From: Desulfobacterales bacterium
Lineage (GTDB): Bacteria > Desulfobacterota > Desulfobacteria > Desulfobacterales > UBA11574
Assembly (NCBI GenBank): GCA_030145345.1
Contig: JAQYVT010000001.1
Span: 13,013 to 77,012, forward strand
Direction of reading: 5' to 3'
DNA length: 64,000 nucleotides
Of the stretch, positions 9,747 to 54,217 are shown piece after piece. The notes below the pieces were generated by a model that searched no databases, was not told the origin of the DNA, and worked only from the letters and a program-made list of their open reading frames with translations. Numbering within the stretch: position 1 is the first letter of the stretch; the number at the start of each line of letters is the position of its first letter. Position numbers and translations under genes: made by a program.

Positions 9747-11066
9747 ATGGGAAAAAACAGCTTACTTAAATCGACCTCCAAAGCCAAGAAAAAGGCGCCT
9801 GCTAAAAAAAAGGCGGCCGCCAAAGCAGCTGCAAAGGCCAAAGCAAGTCCCAAAGCCAAAGCCCTCCCAAAGGCCAAAAAGGCACCCGCAGCCAAAACTA
9901 AAAAAACCGCCCCGAAAACAACCCAGAAGAAGGTTTCTGTGAAAGATCTCATGATGAAAAAGTTCGACCTTTGGAAACCTGAAACCCTCTATACCGTGAG
10001 CCCGGATGAAACCGATTCAAAGGATTTTGCTGCACCGCCTTTTTTCTCCGGCTCAGAAGAAGAAACCCGTCGGATCAAGGAACTGCTGCTGAAAAAATTT
10101 GATCTGGCGGAAATCAAAGCCGCTGGCGAAAAGGCCGCTGCTGAAAAGGCCGCTGCTGAAAAGGCCGCCGCTGAAAAGGCCGCCGCTGAAAAGGCCGCCG
10201 CTGAAAAGGCCGCTGCTGAAAAGGCCGCCGCTGAAAAGGCCGCTGCTGAAAAGGCCGCCGCCGAAAAGGCCGCCGCCGAAAAGGCCGCCGCTGAAAAGGC
10301 CGCCGCTGAAAAGGCCGCTGCTGAAAAGGCCGCCGCTGAAAAGGCCGCCGCTGAAAAGGCCGCTGCTGAAAAGGCCGCCGCTGAAAAGGCCGCCGAACCT
10401 GAGGTGTCTGTATCATACGAACCCCCCGATAGTGGGGACACCATAACCGATGATCCCATGGAAAAAGCCATGAAATATCTGGCCGCCGCTTTCGCGGTTC
10501 TTATCGCACTGGTTATCGGAACCAGCATGATAAACAAAAATAAATTTTACATTCATGCAACAGACGGTGCGCTTGAAATCTGGCAGGGAAGATTCGCCCC
10601 CATGGGCGAGGCATGTTTGATCACGCTCCCCGGAGTTCAACCACCTGAAACAATTAAAGATATTTATTCCAAATCAGACGCCTTTCCCCTTATTTTCAAT
10701 TACTATGTGGAAAAGGCAGATACCCTTTTGACGGTTCCGGGGTTGCCGGATTTTGACGGTATTAAAACGTATTTGAACACGGCGCTGGCATATGCGACAA
10801 CACCGGCCGCCAACGAAGCTGTTTTTAGCCGCTTAAACAACATCGAACTGATGATTCTTCTATACAAGGCGGATGTATCCGCCAGCAAACCCACCCTTTC
10901 CGATCTTAATCAAGCCAAAGGATTTCTTTCGGAAGCGGCAAGACTGGGTATCGATGACCTTAAAGTCGATTTGATCCATCAAAAAATGGATGCCGTGGAT
11001 CAACAGATTGCGGCCCTGAAGGCCAAACAGGCGGCGAAAAAATCTCCGGCAACGCCGGCCAAATAG
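9747..11066 (+). CDS. Membrane-anchored repeat protein: K/A/P-rich histone-H1-like tail, (EKAAA)n helix, one TM helix, C-terminal extracytoplasmic domain
   Basis: 439 aa with an RBS-less but clean ORF. N-terminal KAKKKAPAKKKAAAKAAAKAKASPKAKALPKAKKAPAAK; two copies of [VI]K[DE]L[ML][ML]KKFDL; about 18 EKAAA pentads; the hydrophobic segment YLAAAFAVLIALVIGTSMI. A strong terminator follows. Confidence 0.8.
   Translation: MGKNSLLKSTSKAKKKAPAKKKAAAKAAAKAKASPKAKALPKAKKAPAAKTKKTAPKTTQKKVSVKDLMMKKFDLWKPETLYTVSPDETDSKDFAAPPFFSGSEEETRRIKELLLKKFDLAEIKAAGEKAAAEKAAAEKAAAEKAAAEKAAAEKAAAEKAAAEKAAAEKAAAEKAAAEKAAAEKAAAEKAAAEKAAAEKAAAEKAAAEKAAAEKAAEPEVSVSYEPPDSGDTITDDPMEKAMKYLAAAFAVLIALVIGTSMINKNKFYIHATDGALEIWQGRFAPMGEACLITLPGVQPPETIKDIYSKSDAFPLIFNYYVEKADTLLTVPGLPDFDGIKTYLNTALAYATTPAANEAVFSRLNNIELMILLYKADVSASKPTLSDLNQAKGFLSEAARLGIDDLKVDLIHQKMDAVDQQIAALKAKQAAKKSPATPAK
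10116..10397 (+). repeat. 15-bp tandem repeat (AAG GCC GCY GCY GAA), 17 complete units plus degenerate first and last units
   Basis: Read directly from the sequence. Units differ only at the third positions of two Ala codons (GCT/GCC). In frame within CDS 9747-11066. Confidence 0.95.
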
Positions 11067-26921: not shown

Positions 26922-28328
26922 TTATGTCAGGGGCAAAAGGAAGGACCTAAGGTTTGTTTTTGTATTTCGGAGACCCAGTTTGTTTCTAATATTATTCCGG
27001 TGAAAATTAATGGCACCCGTGGAGGAATTCAACAATTCAGCGATCTCTTTGGTTGTCTTGCCATCCCTAACGAGCCCGGCGACCTGAATTTCACTTGGGG
27101 TAAGATCGGAAAATTTCGAAAACAGCTGGTGAAGAAATGGTGCAATAATGTCCTCAAGGTTCGATTTAATAATATTTAAATATACCATCTGCCGGTCATT
27201 CAATCGGCTGTTATTCAGTTTTTCAATATAAGGAAGCACGAGCTTCTTCACATTTGCAATGACTTTTTCTTCCAATTCTTTTTTATCTTCGTCCCGGTGC
27301 TTCAGGAGGACTTTCAAGGCTGCATTCACTTCCTGAAGCTCATGTGTTTTATTCTCTAATTCATTCCCTCTTTCTAAAAGGGCCAATTCCACCTGTTTGC
27401 GACCGGTTATGTCATGAATAATCGAATATAGAAGTTGTCTGCCATGTACCTTGATGGGCCCGCTGAACACCTCGACATCACGGATTTCGCCGTTGGCCAG
27501 AAGGTGCTGGAAATAAAATACTTGGCGCTGTTCCGCCTTGGCTTTTCCCATTTCCTGAAACACTTGTTCGTCCGAAAGCATATTGATATCTGTAATCTTT
27601 TTGGCGGTTATCGCTTCAAAGCTCCAGCCATAGAAGGAGACAGCCGCCGGGTTGGCATCGACGATATCGGCACTCTCCGGATCTATGAGGAGCATCACGG
27701 AGTGGTGGTCTTTGAAAAGACTCCGATACCGTTCTTCACTCTCTCTGAGGGCTTTTTCAGCTTTTTTGCGACCGGTGATATCCATGATCATTCCGGATAT
27801 GGCATCTCCTTCAAGAACCGCACTTACAAGTAGATTTTTTGTTTCACCGGATTTTGTAAGCGCTTCAAATTCGAAATCCTTAAGGCGGCCCGATTCATTC
27901 AGAGATTGTATCAAAACCTTTCTGTCTTCAGCGTGCCTATATCGAACAATGGCATTTTCTAACAGCATCTCTTCCGGAGACTCGAACCCAAAGATCGTTG
28001 CCGCCGATTGGTTTACATAGAAAATATCGCCGTTGATACTGCTCTGATAAATCCCCACAAGGGAAACATTCAAAAGATTCGAGTATCTTTTGTCTGATTC
28101 TTTCAACTTCCTCTCAGCCCGATCGCGGGCTTTAATCTCTCCCTCGAGACGCCGGACCGTTTTAGCCAATTCGGCATTTTGATCCTCTGCGCGCCCTTCA
28201 AGCCGTGTGTTTGCCTTGCGCAACGCCGCTTTTGCCCGCTTGCGTTCAACGGCTTCATTCTCTAACGCCTCGATCTTTTGTTCCAATTCTTTATCGGTCG
28301 GTTTTGTTTCCATGGGACCTTTCTCCAA
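26922..28328 (-). CDS. PAS-domain LuxR/GerE-family transcriptional regulator
   Basis: 468 aa: an N-terminal coiled coil, two PAS-like segments, and the C-terminal LTPSEIQVAGLVRDGKTTKEIAELLNSSTGAINFHRNNIRNKLGL (LuxR-type HTH). Confidence 0.85.
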   Translation of the reverse strand: MEKGPMETKPTDKELEQKIEALENEAVERKRAKAALRKANTRLEGRAEDQNAELAKTVRRLEGEIKARDRAERKLKESDKRYSNLLNVSLVGIYQSSINGDIFYVNQSAATIFGFESPEEMLLENAIVRYRHAEDRKVLIQSLNESGRLKDFEFEALTKSGETKNLLVSAVLEGDAISGMIMDITGRKKAEKALRESEERYRSLFKDHHSVMLLIDPESADIVDANPAAVSFYGWSFEAITAKKITDINMLSDEQVFQEMGKAKAEQRQVFYFQHLLANGEIRDVEVFSGPIKVHGRQLLYSIIHDITGRKQVELALLERGNELENKTHELQEVNAALKVLLKHRDEDKKELEEKVIANVKKLVLPYIEKLNNSRLNDRQMVYLNIIKSNLEDIIAPFLHQLFSKFSDLTPSEIQVAGLVRDGKTTKEIAELLNSSTGAINFHRNNIRNKLGLRNTKTNLRSFLLPLT

Positions 28329-28395
28329 TTATTCCAACACGAAAAAACAGGTGCAATTTTGATTTGTTTTTTCCGTTGGGTGATTTTTGAGTCTT

Positions 28396-28558
28396 TTGTC
28401 GAAAAGCGCTCGGCGAAGCGGTGCGTTCATCCCGTTTTACCGGGATATACTGCGCGAGCTTAGCGCTTTACAAAAGGCTCAAACCAACGAATGGGAGGTT
28501 TTGAAACGGCTTCTAATAACATTAGAACGAATAGTTCTCCTCCAATTTAGTTGGAGAA
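28396..28558 (+). repeat. Diverged dispersed repeat, family 2, copy A
   Basis: Shares TTGTCGAAAAGC, GGGATATAyT, TTTACA..GGC and a 59-nt 3' module (CAAACCAACGAAT...TTGAAA..GC.TCTAA...GTTCT; 42/59 identical by hand alignment) with 42668-42861, collinear and in the same orientation. Confidence 0.6.
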
Positions 28559-28567
28559 GAGGGTTCG

Positions 28568-28593
28568 AGGATTCAGGGGGTCAAGGGTCCAAG
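28568..28593. repeat. Left arm of the 26-nt inverted repeat bracketing the IVS-protein pseudogene
   Basis: AGGATTCAGGGGGTCAAGGGTCCAAG. Its reverse complement occurs at 28962-28987 with one mismatch. Confidence 0.9.
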
Positions 28594-28949
28594 CGTTTGT
28601 TATCCAACGATTTTATCAGCGCTTTGAGCATCCTTTCAACTTCCTCTTTATCATCCTTGAGAGCCTTTAAATTTTCTTTATTTACATAATTTAAATCACC
28701 TGAAAGCAGGACCTGGGTCTCCTATTCGCAAACAGAACCATAGGCAATATATAATGACCTCAAGTCGTCTGCAGTTATCTTCCTGCCATATCCTTATGCA
28801 ATATTTGAAGGAATCGACACAGCGGCCTTTCTGATCTGAGATGTCAGACCGTATCTTTCTTTTGGAAAATTTTTTGTTATTCTATAAAGATCCAAAGAGA
28901 GTTTGTACGACGTTTGCCAAGCTTTCAGATCTCTGTAATTCTTAAGCAT
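28581..28949 (-). pseudogene. Four-helix-bundle protein (23S rRNA intervening-sequence protein / Avd-like family) inactivated by two in-frame stops
   Basis: Hand translation of the minus strand gives MLKNYRDLKAWQTSYKLSLDLYRITKNFPKERYGLTSQIRKAAVSIPSNIA*GYGRKITADDLRSLYIAYGSVCE*ETQVLLSGDLNYVNKENLKALKDDKEEVERMLKALIKSLDNKRLDP. It matches the family hallmarks YGLTSQ.RRAAVSIPSNIAEG and ELETQ. A TAA at 28794-28796 replaces the conserved Glu, and a TAG at 28722-28724 replaces the conserved Leu. Confidence 0.8.
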
Positions 28950-28961
28950 TTCATTCGAATC

Positions 28962-28987
28962 CTTGGACCCTTGACCCCTTGAATCCT
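28962..28987. repeat. Right arm of the 26-nt inverted repeat bracketing the IVS-protein pseudogene
   Basis: CTTGGACCCTTGACCCCTTGAATCCT is 25/26 complementary to 28568-28593. Confidence 0.9.
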
Positions 28988-29261
28988 TTCAAAATCATCC
29001 ATTCTTTGGGAGATGATCCGAACGAATTTATTATTCTAAAAGGAGTATTATACATTCGTCGGCCAATGAATTGCAAGAAGAGGATGTTGGGGTGATCGGA
29101 TATAGAAATAATCTACACATCGCCGTTCTGATTTAAAAATGGGTGCCGGAACAAAATTGCTTGTAACCGGACCGCAAAGACGTTATAAACCCCTTGCGCT
29201 GATTTTATACAGACCATCGACAGCGCCGATTCTTTAACGTTTAAAATACCAATTTTTGATC

Positions 29262-29876
29262 ATGGGCTTATTATCATCACGCATTTCCGTAACACGCTAT
29301 AAAGTCGAGGGCAGGCTGGACGGACCGGTACACGAAACCGTATACCAGAGCCTTAAACAACGTTCGATTCCCAACATCGAAGATGACGGGTCCGAAGCCA
29401 TCGTCGGCTGGACATCCTTTGAGACTCCGTACGTTCCCGATTTTGAAGGATATTCTTTTGTTTTCGGTGCCCATATGGTTTTTGCCCTCCGGGTCGACAA
29501 AAAATCCATTCCCCCGAAACTCATTCGGAAACATTATACCATAGAGGCTGCCAAACGCCTGGCGGTCACCGATAGAAGCTATTTATCCGCCAACGAGAAG
29601 AAAGTCATCAAAGAAAATGTCGTCCTCACCCTCAGCCGCCGAATTCCGGCAACCCCAAACGTCTTTGATTTGGTTTGGGATTACCAGGAAGCCTCGGTGT
29701 GGTTCTTTTCCAATCTGAAATCGGCCAACGAGGCGCTGGAGACCCTTTTTATCAAATCTTTCGGCCTGCACCTGATCCGTCTGTTCCCCTATACCACGGC
29801 CGACCTGATCGCCGGACTATCGGACGGTGAACGCGATCTATTGGAAAAGCTGGAACAGAGCCAATCTGAGGGATAA
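29262..29876 (+). CDS. RdgC-like recombination-associated protein (short form, N-terminal/central RdgC-like)
   Basis: 204 aa. From memory of E. coli RdgC: a beta-strand start (RISVTRYKV versus NLMVYRL), then KKSIPPKLIRKHYTIEAAKRL...SANEKKVIKENVVLTLSRRIP...ANEALETLFIKSFG, which parallels ILPSPVIKQALEAKIAKLE...KDEVLHSLLPRAF...AEDTLALLRKSLG. ATG at 29262; the track uses the TTG at 29256. Confidence 0.55.
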   Translation: MGLLSSRISVTRYKVEGRLDGPVHETVYQSLKQRSIPNIEDDGSEAIVGWTSFETPYVPDFEGYSFVFGAHMVFALRVDKKSIPPKLIRKHYTIEAAKRLAVTDRSYLSANEKKVIKENVVLTLSRRIPATPNVFDLVWDYQEASVWFFSNLKSANEALETLFIKSFGLHLIRLFPYTTADLIAGLSDGERDLLEKLEQSQSEG

Positions 29877-46721: not shown

Positions 46722-49700
46722 TTAAAAAAGTTTTAGCTGTGACGGACCCGACTTTTTTTTCTTTCCCGGAACCGGCGCTTCGTGGGCTAACAGGTGTTCT
46801 TCTATTTTACCGACAAACGGTGACAGCTCCCGTTTCTCGGTTTTCCCGAAAATCCTTCGTTTTTTTGCAAAAGTGAGATAGAGCCGTTGCTTGGCGCGGG
46901 TCATGGCAACGTAAAAAAGGCGTCGTTCTTCTTCGATATCCGGTGGCGACCCCTTTGTGTCCGGCCGCTGAAACGGCAGGAATCCTTTTTCGCACCCGGT
47001 AACAAATACCACCGGGAATTCAAGTCCTTTGGCAGCGTGCATGGTCATCAAGGCAACCTTTTCAGATCGATGACTGTAAGTGTCCGTATCACTCCCACAC
47101 GCAGCCGCACGCCATACACCCGTTTTATTAAAACCGAAATTTTTGAAGATATCCATCAGGTGTTCAAGCGCTTCTTTTTCCTTGGGCCCCGTGTTAAATA
47201 TCTTGGACAATCGGGTGTTTTCCAAAAGAAAAATCAGCTTTTCCTCCATAGACATGGCCGCCGTCTTTTGTTTCATTTCCAAAATGTTATCCAAAAATTC
47301 GTTGAGCCGCTTCTGCCGAATCTTGCCCATGCCGTTGATGGGAAACCGGCGTGCATTGATCAACCCTGTTTTTAGGGAAAAACGGTTTTGGTAACACCAT
47401 TTTTTAAAGATTTCCGAACTCTGCTTACCAACCGTCGGTTTGGATATATTTAAAGTCCTTTCAAAATCTGAATAACATCCGGACCCTTCGATTATTTTTA
47501 ACAATGAAATTAATTCTGTTATGCCGGTTTTGCCGAATAGGTTTTCCCGGTTAACAATTTGATATGGAATGCCGGCGGCATCAAAAACTTTGGAAATGAC
47601 CCTGTGTTGTTCGGACGTTCGATATAGAACGGCAAAATCGGAAAAGCTGATATTGGGTGTTTGACGGTGTTGGGTCACACGGTCAAAATCAAATGAATGA
47701 AATCCCATTCCACCGATCAATTGTTCGATGGTTCTTCCCACCGCCACAGCTTCTGATTTTTCAGAATACGTATCGATCACCCGGATGGTCTTTTCGCCGT
47801 GGATCTCGGAGAAGATCCGCTCTTTAAATCCGTCTTTTTTCTGGGGTTCGATGACCTGATAAGATGCGTCCAAAATGGTTTGGGTGGACCTGTAATTTTT
47901 TGTCAGATTAACGACTTCGGCTCCAGGATGATCTTCGACAAATCTCTTAAAATATTTGACATTGGAGCCCCTAAACCCGTAAATGGACTGGTCCGGATCA
48001 CCGATCACACAAATGTTACGGTTAGAACCCGGGGGTACAAGGGCTTTTATGAGCCGGTATTGACCATAGTTCAAATCTTGATACTCATCCACAAAAATAA
48101 ATTTAAAAAGATCTCTGCACGTCTCACAAAACCGATGATCTGTTTCAAGAATTCGAACGGCATTGAATATCAGATCTTCATAGTCGTAAAGTCTTTGGAT
48201 TTCCAACAAGTTTTGATACGTCGTATATACGGATAAAAATACCCGGGGAAATTCATCGCCACATTCATCGGGTTTAAGTATCCGTTGTTTGGCGCGAACG
48301 ATCCCGTCTAACAGGTTTTTGGGTTTAATGTTGACCGGGATACCCATCCCCTCGACGTGTTGGATCGCATCTGAAATTAGGGATATTCGGTCATTGTCGT
48401 CGATAAGGTAACGTGTTTTTTCTTCATAATTATTTAATAGCTCGAAGCAAAAACCATGAAATGTTCCGATAAAAGGATCTTGTTTTGGCCGGTCCAACAG
48501 AAGTTCGAGTCTTTGACGCATTTCCTGGGCAGCTTTGTTTGTAAATGTCACGGCCACGATATGTTCCGGTAATACCCTCTTGGTTTTTATTAAGTGTGCA
48601 ATTCTTTGCGTCAGGGTACGTGTTTTTCCGGTTCCAGGACCTGCTACGACCATCAACGGCCCGCTTTTATGCGCCACGACCTGTTTCTGTTTTTGGTTTA
48701 ATTCGCCGGGTTCAAATTTTTGTCCGGTTATTTTCTCGGGGGTAGATTCTTTGCTCACATTTCTGGGGGTATATTGTTTCGAAGTTTTCCCACCCCTTTT
48801 CTTTTTCCCCAAAGGGGGTTGGAAGGGACTGGAAATAAAGAGAGATTTTTGACCCAGCAGACGGTTTCGTTCGTCCTGACCGAATATTTTTATCTTCCCA
48901 AACTCTCCGTCAAATCCCGGAATAATATCGATTTCACTTCGGCGAACCCTCGAAATTGCTTCACCCAGCAAAGGAATCCCTGCGTCGTCGAGGATCTCTT
49001 TTTTAAGGGTCGTTAGAATGTCGAATTCAGGTCCCAGTGTTTCAATTAACGACCGATACGTTCCCGCGACCTTTTTAGAGGCCGGCCCCACTTTCAAAAC
49101 TTCCGACAATATCTCCACAAGGGGGATCGTGTTATAAAACGGATGGTGTCCATCGGGTTTCTCTCCTTCCTTTCGATCCGATAGTTCCTCGACCCTGTAT
49201 AACACCCCCAAAGTCAGGGGTTTTTCACAAACCGGACAGATGCCGCCCCTTTTACGCGTCTGTTTGGGCCAACTGCGCACGTTACATTTCCGATGTCCAT
49301 CAATATGATATTTTCCTTCTTCGGGATAAAACTCAAAGGTACCCAAAAATTTCTCAGAATCCCCGCTCTCCATGGCAGACCTTATGGCGGTGTAAGAGAG
49401 GTCCGTATCAAAAATATTGGCCTCTCGTCCCAGTTTCATGGGGGAGTGGGCATCAGAACTTGATACAAGAGTCAGTCCATCCAATCCAGATACCCGCCAG
49501 TTCATCGAAGGGTCCGAAGAAAGACCGGTTTCAGCTGCAAATATGTAATCGGCAAGATCTTCAAAACATTCTTCAAGGGAATCAAAACCGGATTTTGAAC
49601 CCAGCAATGAAAACCAGGGTGTCCAAATATGCGCTGGAATGAGAAATCCCCCATCAGAAGTCTCAAGAAGAATTTCAAGAAGGTTTCTAGCATCAAGTCC

Positions 49701-50120
49701 GAGTATCGGCCGCCCGTCTGATTTGATATTTCCAATTTTATCCAATCTTAAATTAAATTTTTCGGCCTTATCCAGATCGGATAAAAATACAAGATTATGA
49801 TTTTTCCGGGTTTTGTCGTTTTTTTTATAAATATTGCTGATTTCAGAAACCAGCATAAACCGGACGTCTCGGCGGCATGTTGTAGGAACTTCTTGATCAC
49901 AGACGGCGGATATTTCTTTTTTTAATTTGAACAGTCCCGGCTCAGCCGGTACCAGTTTTTCTTTGATTTCGGAAAACCATCCCGGATGTGTAAAATCTCC
50001 GGTTCCAATGACCGTTATACCTTTTAGCTGTGCAGCGATGTACAGGTTTTCAAGGTCAAGATTCTTGGCCGTTGCTCTTGAAAAATGGGAATGAACATGG
50101 AAATCAGCGATAAATTTCAT
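46722..50120 (-). CDS. Fusion protein: EndoQ-like PHP-domain endonuclease (N-terminal ~430 aa) plus UvrD/PcrA-type SF1 helicase (C-terminal ~700 aa)
   Basis: N-terminus: DFHVHSHFSRA, GTGDFTHPGW, GRP, PAHIWTPWFS, SSDAHSP.KLGREAN, GKYH, the Zn-finger-like ICPVCEKPLTLGVLYRVEEL, and PGFDGEFGKIKIF. These match EndoQ hallmarks from memory. C-terminus: Walker A AGPGTGKTRTL, DEYQD, and the TMHAAKGLEF / VAMTRAK helicase motifs. Confidence 0.85.
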   Translation of the reverse strand: MKFIADFHVHSHFSRATAKNLDLENLYIAAQLKGITVIGTGDFTHPGWFSEIKEKLVPAEPGLFKLKKEISAVCDQEVPTTCRRDVRFMLVSEISNIYKKNDKTRKNHNLVFLSDLDKAEKFNLRLDKIGNIKSDGRPILGLDARNLLEILLETSDGGFLIPAHIWTPWFSLLGSKSGFDSLEECFEDLADYIFAAETGLSSDPSMNWRVSGLDGLTLVSSSDAHSPMKLGREANIFDTDLSYTAIRSAMESGDSEKFLGTFEFYPEEGKYHIDGHRKCNVRSWPKQTRKRGGICPVCEKPLTLGVLYRVEELSDRKEGEKPDGHHPFYNTIPLVEILSEVLKVGPASKKVAGTYRSLIETLGPEFDILTTLKKEILDDAGIPLLGEAISRVRRSEIDIIPGFDGEFGKIKIFGQDERNRLLGQKSLFISSPFQPPLGKKKRGGKTSKQYTPRNVSKESTPEKITGQKFEPGELNQKQKQVVAHKSGPLMVVAGPGTGKTRTLTQRIAHLIKTKRVLPEHIVAVTFTNKAAQEMRQRLELLLDRPKQDPFIGTFHGFCFELLNNYEEKTRYLIDDNDRISLISDAIQHVEGMGIPVNIKPKNLLDGIVRAKQRILKPDECGDEFPRVFLSVYTTYQNLLEIQRLYDYEDLIFNAVRILETDHRFCETCRDLFKFIFVDEYQDLNYGQYRLIKALVPPGSNRNICVIGDPDQSIYGFRGSNVKYFKRFVEDHPGAEVVNLTKNYRSTQTILDASYQVIEPQKKDGFKERIFSEIHGEKTIRVIDTYSEKSEAVAVGRTIEQLIGGMGFHSFDFDRVTQHRQTPNISFSDFAVLYRTSEQHRVISKVFDAAGIPYQIVNRENLFGKTGITELISLLKIIEGSGCYSDFERTLNISKPTVGKQSSEIFKKWCYQNRFSLKTGLINARRFPINGMGKIRQKRLNEFLDNILEMKQKTAAMSMEEKLIFLLENTRLSKIFNTGPKEKEALEHLMDIFKNFGFNKTGVWRAAACGSDTDTYSHRSEKVALMTMHAAKGLEFPVVFVTGCEKGFLPFQRPDTKGSPPDIEEERRLFYVAMTRAKQRLYLTFAKKRRIFGKTEKRELSPFVGKIEEHLLAHEAPVPGKKKKSGPSQLKLF

Positions 50121-50666: not shown

Positions 50667-51785
50667 ATGAAGTTTAAAATTAAAAAGGAAGACATTCTGG
50701 ATGTATTGTCCAAGGTTCAAGGAATAACCGGACGAAAAAGCAATCTGGCTATTACCTCGAATATTCTTATTAAAACAACAGGTAATGGTATAAAATTAGT
50801 GATAACGGATCTTGAAACCGGTTTCGAAGGAATATATCCGGCGGACATTGAATCTCAAGGCACCATAACGATAAATTCAAGAAAGTTTTATGAAATTGTT
50901 AAAGAATTTCCGAGCAAAGAAATACAAGTCGATGAAGTTGAGAATTATTGGATCAAAATTCACAATAAAAATGTTGAGTATAATATTGTTGGAATGAATC
51001 CCGATGATTTTCCTGAAACTCCAGAGATAGAAGATGTTGATTTTTTTACCGTCGATTCCCAAATTTTTAAAGACATGATCGAAAAAACGATCATTATTTC
51101 GGGTGCTCCTGATGAAAAAAGAACCCATATCACCGGAATATATTTTGAATTACAGCACCAAAAGAAAGAAAACATATTCAGAATGGTTTCAACAGACGGC
51201 AACCGTCTTTCAAAAGTGGATTGTATTTATGAAAAAGATTTAAAACTGCCTAAAAAGACCGGTATACTGGTCCCCAAAAAAGGAATGAGTGAAGTTGTAA
51301 AATTTTTAGATTCCACAGGAACCGTTAAAATTGGTATCAAAAATAATAATTTTATTATAAAAAAGGACTTCGAAACAATTATAATTAGGCTTCTCGAAGG
51401 TAATTTTCCAGAATATGGGGATATTATAAAAAGGGGATCTTCCCATGCGATCCATATGGATCGCAAAATGTTTGTATCCATGCTGAAAAGAATGTCTATT
51501 TTGTCTTCAGAAGATTACAAAGGGGTTATTTTTAATTTTAAAGAAGATAACCTTTCCATAACCACAACAAATCCGGAATTGGGTGAATCAAAAGAAGACA
51601 TGGTTATCGACTATAAGGGAGATCCCATAGAAGTTGCTTTTAATCCCAGATACATTATGGAAACCATGAGCGTAATTGATTCTGATAAAATAATTGTTAA
51701 TATAATCGATAGTGAAAAACCCTGTTTACTCGAAGGGGAGAATGACGACACCTATTTAAGTGTAATCATGCCGATGAGAATATGA
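50667..51785 (+). CDS. dnaN: DNA polymerase III beta sliding clamp
   Basis: 372 aa with [20 protein letters not shown]...; the three-domain length; the C-terminal [19 protein letters not shown]. Confidence 0.95.
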
Positions 51786-54217
51786 AAAAACAAGAAAACA
51801 CATACAACGCGGACAATATAAAAGTTCTCGAAGGACTTGAAGCGGTCCGAAAAAGACCGGCCATGTACATCGGGAACACTGGTATTGAGGGGCTTCACCA
51901 TCTGGTTTACGAAGTTGTGGACAACAGTATTGATGAAGCGATGGCCGGTTACTGCGACCTTATAAAAGTTATCCTACATACGGACAACAGTGTCAGTATC
52001 GAAGATAACGGCCGGGGAATACCCGTTGGGATACAAAAATCCGAGAATGTGCCTGCTGTTGAAGTTGTCATGACCAAACTTCATTCAGGAGGAAAATTCG
52101 ATAGTGATTCTTATAAAGTTTCCGGTGGACTTCACGGTGTGGGGGTGTCGGTGGTAAATGCGCTTTCAAAATTTATGGAAGTCGAAATTTATACCGATGG
52201 AAAAATTTATTATCAAACATATGAAAAAGGAAAAAAAACCAGAGAAATCAATATCATCGGAAAAACCAAGAAAAGGGGTACAAAAATACATTTTGTTCCT
52301 GATACGGAAATTTTAGAAACAGGCAATTTTAGTTATGATGTTCTGATTCGAAGATTAAGAGAGCTTGCTTTTTTAAACAAAGGCGTCCGATTAACCATCG
52401 AAGATGAACGATCGGATAAAAAAGATGAATTTTATTATAAAGGCGGCCTTATATCATTTGTGGAGTATCTGAATAAAATAAATTCGCCACTTCATAAACC
52501 TATTTTCATAGAAGGCATAAAAAATGATGTTCAAATAGAAGTTGCCCTTCAATACAACGATACATTCAAGGAAAAAATATTTTCATTTGCCAATAATATC
52601 AATACGGCCGAAGGGGGGTTTCATCTCATCGGTTTAAAGGCGGGATTAACGCGAACCGTCAATCAATATTCAACAAACGGGAACCTTCCAAAAAACCTTC
52701 AAGCCAAGATTAGCGGTGAAGACATTAGAGAGGGTTTAACAGCGGTTATAAGTATTAGAATAAAGTCCCCACAGTTTGAGGGTCAAACAAAGACAAAACT
52801 TGGAAACAGTGAAGTAAAAGGGCTGGTCGAGTCTCTGGTGAACGAGAAATTAAGTATGTTTCTGGAAGAGAATCCAACCGTGGGCAAAAAGATAGTTGCT
52901 AAAGCGGTGGATGCTTCCAGGGCCAGGGATGCAGCAAAAAGAGCACGGGATATCGCAAGAAAACAGGGTGCTCTTATCGATTCAACACTCCCGGGCAAGC
53001 TTGCCGAATGCCAGGTTTCAGAGCCTTCCGAAAGAGAAATTTTTATCGTGGAAGGTGACTCTGCCGGGGGCAGTGCCAAACAAGGTAGAGACAGAAAGTT
53101 TCAGGCAATACTGCCATTAAAAGGGAAAATATTAAATGTTGAGAAAGCCAGATTTGATAAAATTCTTCGAAGCGAAGAGATTAAAAATATCATTACAGCC
53201 CTGGGAACCGGAGTGGGTGAAGAAGAATACGATATTGAAAAAATAAGGTATCACAAAACAATTATCATGACCGATGCGGATGTTGACGGATCTCACATTC
53301 GAACGCTTCTGTTAACCTTCTTTTACAGACACATGCCCGAGATGGTCGAAAAAGGGTATCTATACATTGCGCAACCCCCCCTGTTTAAAATCGGCAAAGG
53401 AAAGAATGAAATTTATTTAAAACATGAAAATCAATTGAACGATCACATTTTAAAACGAGCATGCAATAAAAAAAATATAAAGCTTGGAGAAGAAGAAAAG
53501 ATTCTATCCGATCATAACCTCTATCTTTTCATGACGAATCTTTCTGAATATTTTTTGATAATTTCGAGATTGAAAAAACAAGGGATTATCGGCGATCTTA
53601 TCGAATTGTTAATTAAAGAAAATGTTGAAAACAAAAAATTTCTAAAAGACCGACAAAAAATGAGCCAGTTAAAAAAGACGCTTATTGAAAAAGAGTATCA
53701 TGTCGCTGAATTAACATGGAATTCGGAACGGGATGTTTATGAAATGACGGTTACCCCGTCGTTTGGCCAAAAGGGACGATTGTCGGAAAAAATGCCAAAC
53801 ATAAAGGTGAAACCCATAAAAATCGGCAGAAGCCTTATTTATTCCGGAGATTTCCAGAAAAGCCTGTTTTTGAGTAAAAACATTTTCAAATACGATCGTC
53901 CACCTTTTCTTGTTTTTAACAAGGACGATGAGGACAATTTCATTCGCATCGATGATAAAAAAGACCTTCTTTCTTTTTTTATGGAGGAAGGGAAAAAAGG
54001 TCTCGGCATTCAGAGATACAAAGGTCTGGGTGAAATGAATCCAAACCAACTATGGGAAACCACAATGAATCCGGACAAAAGAACCCTCTTGCAGGTAAAG
54101 GTCGAGGATGTGGTTGAAACCGATGAAATTTTTACCGTTCTCATGGGCGAGGCCGTCGAACCCAGAAGAGAATTTATCACCAGCAATGCCCTTGAGGTGA
54201 ACATGCTGGATATATAG
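51782..54217 (+). CDS. gyrB: DNA gyrase subunit B
   Basis: 811 aa with [32 protein letters not shown], the Toprim [15 protein letters not shown], and [10 protein letters not shown]. Overlaps the dnaN stop by 4 nt. Confidence 0.98.

Follow-up and report, generated by a model that had tools for sequence, protein, structure and literature searches.

Which kind of genetic unit is represented by a broken gene of the four-helix-bundle family that lies inside a long inverted repeat, as such genes do in the intervening sequences (IVSs) of 23S rRNA, but stands outside any recognisable rRNA gene? The stretch of DNA analysed here, referred to as the window, comprises 64,000 nt from a Desulfobacterales bacterium (UBA11574; assembly GCA_030145345.1, contig JAQYVT010000001.1, positions 13,013-77,012, forward strand). 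Based on terminal inverted repeats, an 8-bp direct repeat, empty orthologous sites and intact copies in unrelated operons, we conclude with a probability of roughly 0.8 that the minus strand of 28533-29019 represents a decayed non-autonomous DNA transposon of ~490 bp, of the type called 'mobile insertion cassette'. As outlined in Table 1, the parts follow each other in the order terminal inverted repeat with hairpin, purine-rich tandem-octamer arm, 123-codon PF05635 gene, complementary arm, and again terminal inverted repeat with hairpin. The PF05635 gene is the sole conserved ORF inside the element, and a transposase is not encoded.

Table 1 Features of the proposed cassette and of the adjoining host sequence (positions in the window).
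Feature	Positions	Strand	Details
Mobile cassette, whole unit (proposed decayed copy)	28533..29019	-	487 bp; both edges of homology sharp
Four-helix-bundle (PF05635/TIGR02436) pseudogene	28584..28949	-	TAA 28796-28794; TAG 28724-28722; one-codon deletion near 28859
5' arm of inner inverted repeat	28962..28987	-	Tandem octamers (AAGGRKTC), purine-rich, AGG-rich
3' arm of inner inverted repeat	28568..28593	-	25/26 complementary to 28962-28987; holds last four codons and TGA (28583-28581)
5' terminal inverted repeat (GGATCATCTCCCAA...)	28990..29019	-	Weak predicted hairpin (AUCAUC...GAUGAU), -6.2 kcal/mol, z = -0.3
3' terminal inverted repeat	28533..28562	-	In predicted 10-bp hairpin (UCUUCUCCAA-CUAAA-UUGGAGGAGA), -13 kcal/mol, z = -3.5
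Target-site duplication by 5' end	29020..29027	.	GAACGAAT
Target-site duplication by 3' end	28525..28532	.	GAACGAAT on + strand, 8/8 identical to 29020-29027
PAS-PAS-LuxR(GerE) regulator gene	26922..28328	-	Downstream of cassette; Pfam PAS_9, PAS, GerE; synteny kept in L174, L177
Host promoter-like site TTGCAA-18-TATAAT	29047..29076	-	10/12, consensus scan only; ~20 nt upstream of insertion

The minus-strand translation of 28949-28584, in which the two in-frame stops were masked as X for the profile searches, matched PF05635 with an E value of 1.8e-34 (118.6 bits, cut-off 33.8) and TIGR02436 with 1.6e-32 (112 bits, cut-off 24). With scores this far above the cut-offs, the family membership that had been proposed in the original prediction was borne out; a second member of the family was not found within the 64-kb window. 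The same prediction had placed two stops in the gene, each one base away from the expected codon. TAA indeed stands in place of the Glu of SNIAEG and TAG in place of the Leu of CELETQ, and since the four closest intact copies carry GAA and TTG at these positions, each stop is a one-base change. Further damage had been missed, namely a one-codon deletion (FPKE-RYGL vs FPKEERYGL) and seven more amino-acid changes which are peculiar to the window copy and which are accompanied by 0 synonymous changes. Altogether, the lineage-specific substitutions of the window copy amount to 0 synonymous versus 9 non-synonymous ones, plus the codon deletion. The R-x3-S-x3-N-x2-E motif, which is conserved in the four-helix-bundle family (PMC3936711), is broken by the exchange of its Glu for TAA and of its Arg for Lys. 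Because of these two exchanges, the second stop and the codon deletion, the window copy is classified as a pseudogene member of the family and, judged from its sequence, the ORF is dead.

It is very improbable that the gene is still functional and that its stops are sequencing or assembly errors or are read through. Such a view could draw on the stops lying one base off the family codons and on the good preservation of the non-coding modules and of the duplication, but it would have to accommodate ten independent lesions on the window lineage, none of them synonymous: both stops, the loss of one codon, and seven replacements, among them R42K within the conserved motif. Furthermore, the neighbouring ORFs fit the standard bacterial code, under which they yield Pfam matches and are limited by ordinary stop codons. 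In the family at large the ORF is under purifying selection, with a median dN/dS of 0.15 over 61 pairs.

With respect to the extent of the unit, the 26-nt inverted repeat had been taken as its boundary, giving 28568-28987. This delimitation had to be revised, as the homology with other copies spans 29019 to 28533 and reaches 32-35 nt past each inner arm, up to conserved termini; the true unit measures 487 bp, and the 26-nt repeat lies inside the mobile element and does not mark its terminus. Copies with 91-94% identity over ~487 nt (L082, L085, L090, L084 and L180) occupy unrelated gene contexts. They precede an acyl-CoA ligase-type gene, separate an ABC substrate-binding gene from its permease, split a pair of DUF169 and AF_1314_C genes, or part an RND fusion-protein gene from a gene of 1461 codons. 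These close copies were retrieved by exact-protein look-ups; in the genome and metagenome scans the matches listed reached at best 69% and 72% identity and included neither the window's own genome nor its closest relatives. The relatives whose existence elsewhere had been anticipated thus occur in large numbers.

The outer ends of the cassettes of this type, described by the pattern GGWTCWTCTCCMAA(N3-5)AGTTGG, showed a mean of 9.4 out of 13 terminal matches in 27 copies compared to 3.4 in shuffled sequences (shuffle maximum 9), with 8/13 for the window copy and 13/13 for L006. The 3' end ..TTGG(G)AGAAGAACC is kept in all 27 and exists in two variants, told apart by a matched C/G insertion in both halves; the 5' hairpin of the window copy alone is not significant. 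Directly outside the termini, among 30 scanned copies of which 27 were credible, a duplication was perfect (8/8) in 10 and nearly so (7/8) in 4, whereas cross-paired controls gave 0% and 1.3%, respectively. The ten perfect 8-mers differ in sequence from copy to copy, and the target sites consist of 81% A+T. For the window locus, empty-site orthologues of related species are available in L177 and in L174-L176, where synteny is kept, the flanks are 86-92% identical and the sequence runs contiguously over the site with one copy of the 8-mer (gaacaaat in L177, gaaggaat in L174-L176). Moreover, the identical protein P0007 is encoded by elements that share 99% identity and differ in their 5' flanks, which suggests recent activity of these cassettes. 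Taken together with the lesions of the gene, the terminal inverted repeats, target-site duplication and orthologous empty sites substantiate the earlier suggestion of a decayed IVS-like or mobile cassette, and they are direct evidence, at the sequence level, for the movement of one large PF05635 clade as a DNA transposon.

The same observations bear on the origin from rRNA. A relic of a true rRNA IVS, or a stem-loop cassette that ends at the 26-nt repeat, could have arrived here by recombination, and both the gene family and the stem-around-ORF layout are common to 23S IVSs; nevertheless this origin is hardly credible, as its boundaries are contradicted by the homology beyond each arm, and as the duplication is perfect and the empty sites are clean. 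No rRNA gene was detected in the 64-kb window, where an Rfam scan returned zero families at gathering score, in agreement with the claim that this copy is far from any rRNA gene. With permissive settings, Rfam returned for the element only bxd_1, a chance match (E 0.69). Among the 173 related loci no convincing 23S or 16S rRNA signature was found apart from one isolated 14-mer in L044, a result of little weight because MAG contigs are often without rRNA operons. The link to true rRNA IVSs consists in a shared gene family and architecture and is not evidence of an rRNA-gene origin.

The 173 loci, all of them outside rRNA genes, mostly lie in intergenic spacers of operons, and the cassettes are co-oriented with both neighbours in 73 cases (+,+) versus 3 (-,-). 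Terminal repeats and the 8-bp duplication, i.e. the transposon shell, were seen only in a Desulfobacterota-type clade which makes up ~28 of 132 distinct loci; in about a third of the shell-type copies the ORF is disrupted. In the remaining 104 loci, which have no shell, target duplications of 4-10 bp and terminal repeats were sought and gave no signal above control, so that the evidence for mobility is limited to the Desulfobacterota-type clade. The Xanthomonas orthologues of the XCC0516 gene form an arms-ORF-arms cassette between accB and accC. Full-text searches of the literature yielded no account of target duplications or terminal repeats for the four-helix-bundle family.

In the window, the insertion lies between rdgC and the PAS-LuxR regulator gene and has the same orientation as the latter. 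The promoter-like sequence at 29047-29076 is conserved in an alignment of the empty-site orthologues, and if this predicted promoter is real, the cassette apparently sits in the 5' leader of the regulator gene. A second candidate, TTGAAA-18-TAAAAT at 28639-28610, was considered as an outward promoter within the ORF and rejected, since the synonymous sites over its codons vary freely in 57 intact genes. Likewise discarded were two general roles for the 3' terminal hairpin: as an intrinsic terminator, because it was flagged as terminator-like in the window only, owing to flanking sequence, and as a downstream Shine-Dalgarno sequence, a GGAG being placed ~9 nt from an ATG in L085 but not generally. 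A search for anti-phage defence matched no PADLOC model.

The 25/26 inverted repeat, predicted to enclose the gene and to overlap its last codons, was present in every detail. Within the window the arm pattern occurs at these two places only, and two matches were obtained in 0/100 shuffles; Tandem Repeats Finder reported 4 copies of period 8 at 28957-28988. Codons 120-123, which lie within the 3' arm, have almost zero synonymous variation in the 57 intact genes and are consequently constrained at the nucleotide level. In a mini-construct the two arms, which had been proposed as a foldable pair, gave -48 kcal/mol (z = -9.6), and the stem enclosing the ORF appeared in both the minimum-free-energy and the centroid folds of the window copy, with z = -4.0 compared to -6.4 in the intact L082 copy. 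Across phyla, 136 of 146 family loci reached a stem score of at least 12, while only 1/146 did so after shuffling. The 5' arm was purine-rich in 134 of the 136 loci with a stem, and AGG was counted 403 times in 5' arms against 8 times in 3' arms. This strand asymmetry, along with the co-orientation of the cassettes with host genes, points to pairing of the arms at the RNA level; the numbers of sense-strand G.U and A.C mismatches in the arms (214 vs 186, p = 0.18) did not differ significantly. By analogy to IVSs, the arm stem is probably a substrate of RNase III.

As another possibility, the movement itself could proceed via RNA, with the stem-bounded transcript being reverse-transcribed and integrated with the help of an Avd-like protein and a reverse transcriptase. 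The fold shared with Avd of diversity-generating retroelements (DGRs), which is a partner of a reverse transcriptase, and the co-orientation of the cassettes with transcription would agree with this route. It is, however, highly improbable: the mobile unit extends beyond the arms and therefore differs from the RNase III product, its termini are inverted repeats and its target duplication is fixed at 8 bp, and neither the 39 window ORFs scanned nor the precomputed Pfam matches of the syntenic loci contained a reverse transcriptase (RVT) domain. Least probable of all, and next to negligible, is the remnant of a DGR with an orphan avd gene. Weak matches to bAvd (E 0.0076) and to the NCBIfam model of Avd (E 0.006) exist, but the scores were 17.2 bits for PF22296 (cut-off 40) and 16.9 for NF033474 (cut-off 80), compared to 118.6 for PF05635, and the copy is a member of a transposon family that has ends of its own. 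The earlier statement that this is not a DGR is consistent with the score of the Avd model and with the missing reverse transcriptase among the scanned ORFs; the repeat search covered 28300-29300.

In order to place the protein structurally, the intact relative P0003 (89% identical) was used, whose AlphaFold model (pLDDT 90.8) comprises four helices. Foldseek gave TM scores of 0.84-0.90 to 2GSC and of 0.73-0.84 to Avd, and a sequence search of the structure database (phmmer) retrieved 2GSC with E 2.8e-27. The close structural relatives of the protein are 2GSC, 2RLD and Avd only, and none of them has a nuclease or transposase fold. Both 2GSC and 2RLD were deposited with five chains.

Terminal inverted repeats combined with a duplication fixed at 8 bp are the hallmark of DDE transposases. 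The cassette was inserted into the AT-rich 8-bp target GAACGAAT, which was thereby duplicated, and we propose that its movement depends on a DDE-type transposase provided in trans. The GG ends and the 8-bp duplication are reminiscent of ISL3, IS6 or IS1595. An autonomous IS with matching ends was absent from the window, from ~0.7 Mb of loci, from PLSDB plasmids (permissive-E blastn, which returned only Nostoc four-helix genes) and from IMG/VR viral contigs (pattern scan, 0 matches); for this reason both the mobilisation in trans and the transposase family are offered as inferences. The missing partner may also be read in favour of an autonomous element, in which the four-helix-bundle protein would itself be the mobility factor, or one of its essential components, and the window copy would be a dead autonomous copy. 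Purifying selection on the ORF in copies over many loci is compatible with such autonomy, and a mobility role of the IVS ORF has been suggested by Ralph and McClelland (as related in PMC4990558). We regard it as unlikely, given a plain four-helix bundle of 123 aa with relatives that lack a nuclease or transposase fold, ends and duplication typical of DDE transposases, and the disrupted ORF in about a third of the shell-type copies.

For a non-autonomous transposon of this kind, the promoter-less gene would be expressed by read-through from host promoters. In the transcript, the arms could pair as a ~26-bp stem cuttable by RNase III, as demonstrated for the 23S IVSs of Coxiella and Leptospira. 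The cut would release the insert from the host transcript and thereby limit the harm to the host operon. The protein may be a pentameric, Avd-like nucleic-acid-binding four-helix bundle with a role that serves the element.

Beyond this, it is conceivable, though in our estimate clearly short of an even chance, that the IVS-type ORF cassettes of rRNA and the four-helix-bundle genes scattered in operons, including those reported to be CRISPR-associated and XCC0516, form one selfish class which is defined by tandem-repeat arms for the survival of host RNA via RNase III excision. Within such a class the arms would let host rRNA or polycistronic mRNA outlive the insertion, an intron-like damage control at the RNA level. 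In Desulfobacterota the module would be carried in the transposon shell (terminal inverted repeats and 8-bp target duplication), whose terminal hairpins would stay behind on the two pieces of host mRNA, capping and protecting their 3' and 5' ends.

In 2016 the origin and mobility of IVSs and the role of their ORF were called unclear, and transposition was listed as a hypothesis only (PMC4990558). Filled and empty orthologous sites, defined ends and an 8-bp duplication are now at hand for one large clade of PF05635 genes. The arms-ORF-arms layout is shared family-wide and is present in housekeeping operons including Xanthomonas accB-accC. The reported association of four-helix-bundle genes with cas operons (PMC3936711) finds a simpler reading as selfish insertion into operons rather than functional partnership. 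The defined termini and stems are testable objects, and for annotation the cassettes account for a common class of short genes and pseudogenes which are flanked by repeats and cause breaks in metagenome assemblies.

Compared with known systems, the cassette resembles the 23S IVSs of Coxiella burnetii (S23p) and Leptospira in encoding a PF05635 protein and in carrying the ORF within a ~26-28 bp stem. The Coxiella IVS has tandem heptamers (GACAGAT), and RNase III cuts its 28-bp stem; in analogy to it, the cassette has tandem 7-8-nt repeats just upstream of the start codon and an ORF that is prone to decay (PMC4990558). Unlike 23S IVSs, the window copy and the 173 related loci lie outside rRNA genes, and RNase III cleavage, demonstrated for IVSs, is inferred for the window clade. 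This clade also adds outer terminal inverted repeats and an 8-bp duplication, neither of which is mentioned for Coxiella in the accessible part of PMC4990558. The Avd protein of DGRs (4DWL, 8UB7) has the same fold (TM 0.73-0.84 to the model of the intact relative), but it differs by a sequence identity of 12-15%, by Avd models that score far under the cut-off and by the DGR context, which is absent here. XCC0516 (2GSC) and BT_0352 (2RLD) share both family and fold (E 2.8e-27, TM up to 0.90), and the XCC0516-type cassette of Xanthomonas has heptamer arms (GGGAATC), with no outer terminal repeats or target duplication recognised. MIC231 of the Bacillus cereus group and the Correia/NEMIS elements of Neisseria are mobile insertion cassettes or MITEs. 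From these the window clade is set apart by a single conserved cargo gene on which purifying selection acts (dN/dS ~0.15), by a second, internal tandem-octamer inverted repeat which brackets this gene exactly, and by the lack of a recognised parent IS. Like them, its members are short, have no transposase of their own, carry terminal inverted repeats and a fixed-length duplication, are dispersed and show presence/absence polymorphism, and like the Correia elements they would be co-transcribed with host genes and able to fold into a long RNA hairpin such as RNase III cuts.

Conceptual translation of the minus strand of the cassette reads as a complete four-helix-bundle protein (coordinates are collected in the table). 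With both in-frame stops masked, the translation matched PF05635 with E 1.8e-34 (118.6 bits versus a cut-off of 33.8) and TIGR02436 with E 1.6e-32, likewise above cut-off, so that the HMM search proposed with the original prediction bore out the family assignment; the two predicted stops are present as well. The nearest structures are 2GSC and 2RLD, with Avd, the accessory protein of diversity-generating retroelements (DGR), more distant. An identity as DGR Avd was rejected, the models scoring far under their cut-offs (17.2 versus 40 bits and 16.9 versus 80 bits). The PF05635-type family comprised 6726 proteins at E <= 1e-10; the nearest of them shared 85-90% identity with the window copy, nearly all being of 123 aa with the C-terminus ...SLENKRL(N/D)P.

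Lesions were counted against the four nearest intact copies, only at codons where those four agree. In the window-copy ORF, nine codons have changed non-synonymously (the two stops included) and one codon is deleted, while not a single synonymous change is seen; intact copies at different loci, in contrast, show a median dN/dS of 0.15. On sequence grounds the ORF is a pseudogene, and an assembly error is unlikely to have caused ten independent lesions. Since the ORF is disrupted in about one third of the copies bearing the outer terminal repeats, the window copy is a typical decayed member, an ordinary dead copy.

Copies 91-94% identical in DNA to the window element were found in unrelated gene contexts, and the homology among copies breaks off abruptly ~68 nt 5' of the ATG and ~50 nt beyond the last codon. 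Consequently, the element in the window measures 487 bp; the predicted cassette was right as to presence, mobility and decay, but its proposed extent of 28568-28987 was too small. The element ends form terminal inverted repeats, GG(A/T)TC(A/T)TCTCC(A/C)AA..., which agree end to end at 9.4 of 13 positions on average in 27 copies versus 3.4 in shuffles. Both ends sit within hairpins, the 5' one being weak in the window copy; two versions of the 3' hairpin exist, set apart by a C/G insertion that is matched between its halves. The 8-mers directly outside the ends were identical at 8/8 positions in 10 copies and at 7/8 in four more (30 scanned, 27 credible), versus 0% and 1.3%, respectively, in cross-paired controls; these targets, 81% A+T, differ in each copy. 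Only a Desulfobacterota-type clade (~28 of 132 distinct loci) showed terminal repeats and 8-bp duplication, and no duplication signal was found around the remaining loci outside it. Furthermore, the identical protein P0007 occurs in 99% identical elements with unlike 5' flanks, which suggests recent activity. At L180 the 5' terminus is partly duplicated (GAATCATCTCCAAAAGAGTTTTT GAATCATCTCCAAAAGAGTTGATGA) and the target duplication is 7/8. Some loci hold two cassettes close together (L041, L067, L060, L101, L148): in L041 they are in tandem with ~160 nt between them, and in L148 the 3' end of the second lies ~480 bp upstream of the first.

Coordinates and contexts of the features (L-numbers denote fetched related loci)
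Feature	Location	Strand	Remark
Element	28533-29019	-	
Four-helix-bundle ORF	28949-28584	-	
In-frame stop TAA	28796-28794	-	pseudogene lesion
In-frame stop TAG	28724-28722	-	pseudogene lesion
Inner arms	28568-28593 and 28962-28987		
Target-site duplication, 8 bp	28525-28532 and 29020-29027		GAACGAAT, outside element ends in window
Filled site	window		...aataacatta GAACGAAT [element] GAACGAAT ttattattct...
Empty site	L177		...aataacgtta gaacaaat atgctattct...
Empty site	L174		...aacaacattc gaaggaat ttattgttcc...
Copy	L082		acyl-CoA ligase-type gene downstream of element
Copy	L085		between ABC substrate-binding gene and permease gene of same system
Copy	L090		between DUF169 gene and AF_1314_C gene
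Copy	L180		between RND fusion-protein gene and 1461-codon gene
Duplicated 5' terminus	L180:9880-10000		
Neighbouring cassettes	L041:3001-3762; L148:195-224		
GC-rich insert	L174:3440-3700; L175:1-250		
Region lacking regulators	L178:2235-4615		
Xanthomonas cassette	L184:3925-4375		chromosome CP173422.1; also L182, L183
HC2-like ORF	9747-11066	+	
dnaN and gyrB	50667-54217	+	
ORF upstream of dnaN/gyrB	46722-50120	-	1132 aa

In the window, rdgC (+) and a PAS-PAS-LuxR regulator gene (-) diverge from a common spacer, which contains the element in the orientation of the regulator gene. A promoter-like TTGCAA-18-TATAAT, a consensus match only, is located ~20 nt upstream of the element and is kept in the empty-site orthologues, so that the element would lie in the 5' leader of the regulator. 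Orthologues of the rdgC-like gene with 98% and 92% amino-acid identity are found on contigs of the same synteny, and their flanks, 86-92% identical in nucleotides, identify these as related species. In L177 and L174-L176 the spacer runs contiguously over the insertion point with one copy of the 8-mer, which reads as a classical filled-versus-empty comparison. Evidently, the cassette transposes with an 8-bp duplication, and terminal repeats, duplication and orthologous empty sites together uphold the predicted mobility. L174 and L175 have a different insert, roughly 180-250 bp long, in this spacer; it is GC-rich with palindromes (CCCTGCAGCTTGCTGCAGGG; CCCCGCAGC...GCTGCGGGG) and called as a 135-aa ORF without Pfam match, probably another small repeat element. 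The more distant L178 (rdgC 85% identical) lacks the HTH and PAS-LuxR regulator genes, and a multihaem cytochrome gene directly adjoins rdgC; the block of regulators that the cassette entered is thus itself variable.

As predicted, no rRNA gene was detected around the cassette, no Rfam family reaching the gathering score in the 64 kb. Neither a second PF05635-type member was found in the window nor a reverse transcriptase or transposase among 39 Pfam-scanned ORFs (33 of the 36 that reach 250 aa, together with the immediate neighbours), which have housekeeping and regulatory functions; the absence of a visible reverse transcriptase had likewise been anticipated. A 439-aa ORF with a histone H1-like HC2 family match and extensin-like low-complexity repeats is an unusual neighbour for core metabolic genes, and directly upstream of the adjacent dnaN and gyrB their strand carries no gene of dnaA size.

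The inner arms are 25/26 complementary, as predicted, and occur nowhere else in the window; shuffled sequence never contained two matches to their pattern. An inverted repeat (median 29 bp) surrounds the ORF in 136 of 146 distinct loci from Desulfobacterota, Nitrospirota, Planctomycetota, Bacteroidota, WOR-3, Elusimicrobiota and others, versus 1/146 in shuffled controls. Related cassettes therefore exist elsewhere, and the arms are, by this comparison, a family-wide trait. They consist of tandem 7-8-nt units (AAGGRKTC, CAAAGGCA, AGGGACT, AGGCACT, GGCAATR, GTTGACAA) that vary by lineage, yet both arms of each cassette always match. Purines predominate in the 5' arm at 134 of the 136 loci (403 AGG versus 8 in 3' arms), and the last four codons, part of the 3' arm, show hardly any synonymous variation. 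In 73 cases the cassette runs in the direction of both neighbouring genes and in 3 against both, at a median gap of ~80 nt to a neighbouring gene. Purifying selection on the family ORF, orientation bias and conserved strand-asymmetric arms are established. At a site shared by three Phycisphaerales genomes (L048, L049, L061; flanking genes 74-83% identical in nucleotides) the cassette proteins share just 51-58% identity and have completely unlike arm units (GGCAATR, GGCATCGA, GGCATTC), which suggests either that the cassette was replaced at a hotspot or that both arms evolve in concert very fast.

Folding of the arms alone, proposed as a check, gave a stem of -48 kcal/mol, and the fold in which the arm stem encloses the ORF has z = -4.0 in the window copy and z = -6.4 in L082, which is intact; sense-strand G.U versus A.C mismatches, counted as a test of RNA-level selection, did not differ significantly (214 versus 186, p = 0.18). 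The promoter-less gene would be expressed by read-through, and the arms would pair in the transcript to give an RNase III substrate. Mobility mediated by RNA is unlikely, because the mobile unit reaches past the arms and bears terminal inverted repeats. We regard the cassette as a mobile, MITE-like insertion element with an IVS-type (rRNA intervening sequence) cargo module, which a DDE transposase may move in trans. Neither a transposase nor a matching autonomous element was found in the window, ~0.7 Mb of fetched loci, plasmids or viral contigs; GG ends and 8-bp duplication resemble those of ISL3, IS6 or IS1595. The significance rests on the family comparison rather than on the window copy itself, and full-text literature searches turned up no account of this family with terminal repeats, target duplications or empty sites.

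The same arms-ORF-arms design is described for the Coxiella 23S IVS, where heptamer repeats precede the ORF and RNase III cuts a 28-bp stem; the paper describing it calls the IVS origin unclear and lists transposition just as a hypothesis (PMC4990558). In Xanthomonas, orthologues of the crystallised XCC0516 (PDB 2GSC) lie co-oriented between accB and accC, within a 30-nt repeat, 83% complementary and built of tandem GGGAATC heptamers, which begins 5 nt past the stop codon of accB and extends to the ATG of accC, leaving no obvious Shine-Dalgarno sequence for accC. 23S_rRNA_IVP genes have been reported as CRISPR-Cas-associated, e.g. between cmr3 and cmr2 in Pleurocapsa (PMC3936711, PMC10910872), and four-helix-bundle IVS-type genes also inside CPR rRNA insertions. 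These cases fit a selfish insertion; tandem-repeat arms might also be mistaken for mini CRISPR arrays, and the habit of inserting into operons is the simpler explanation of the CRISPR-Cas association.
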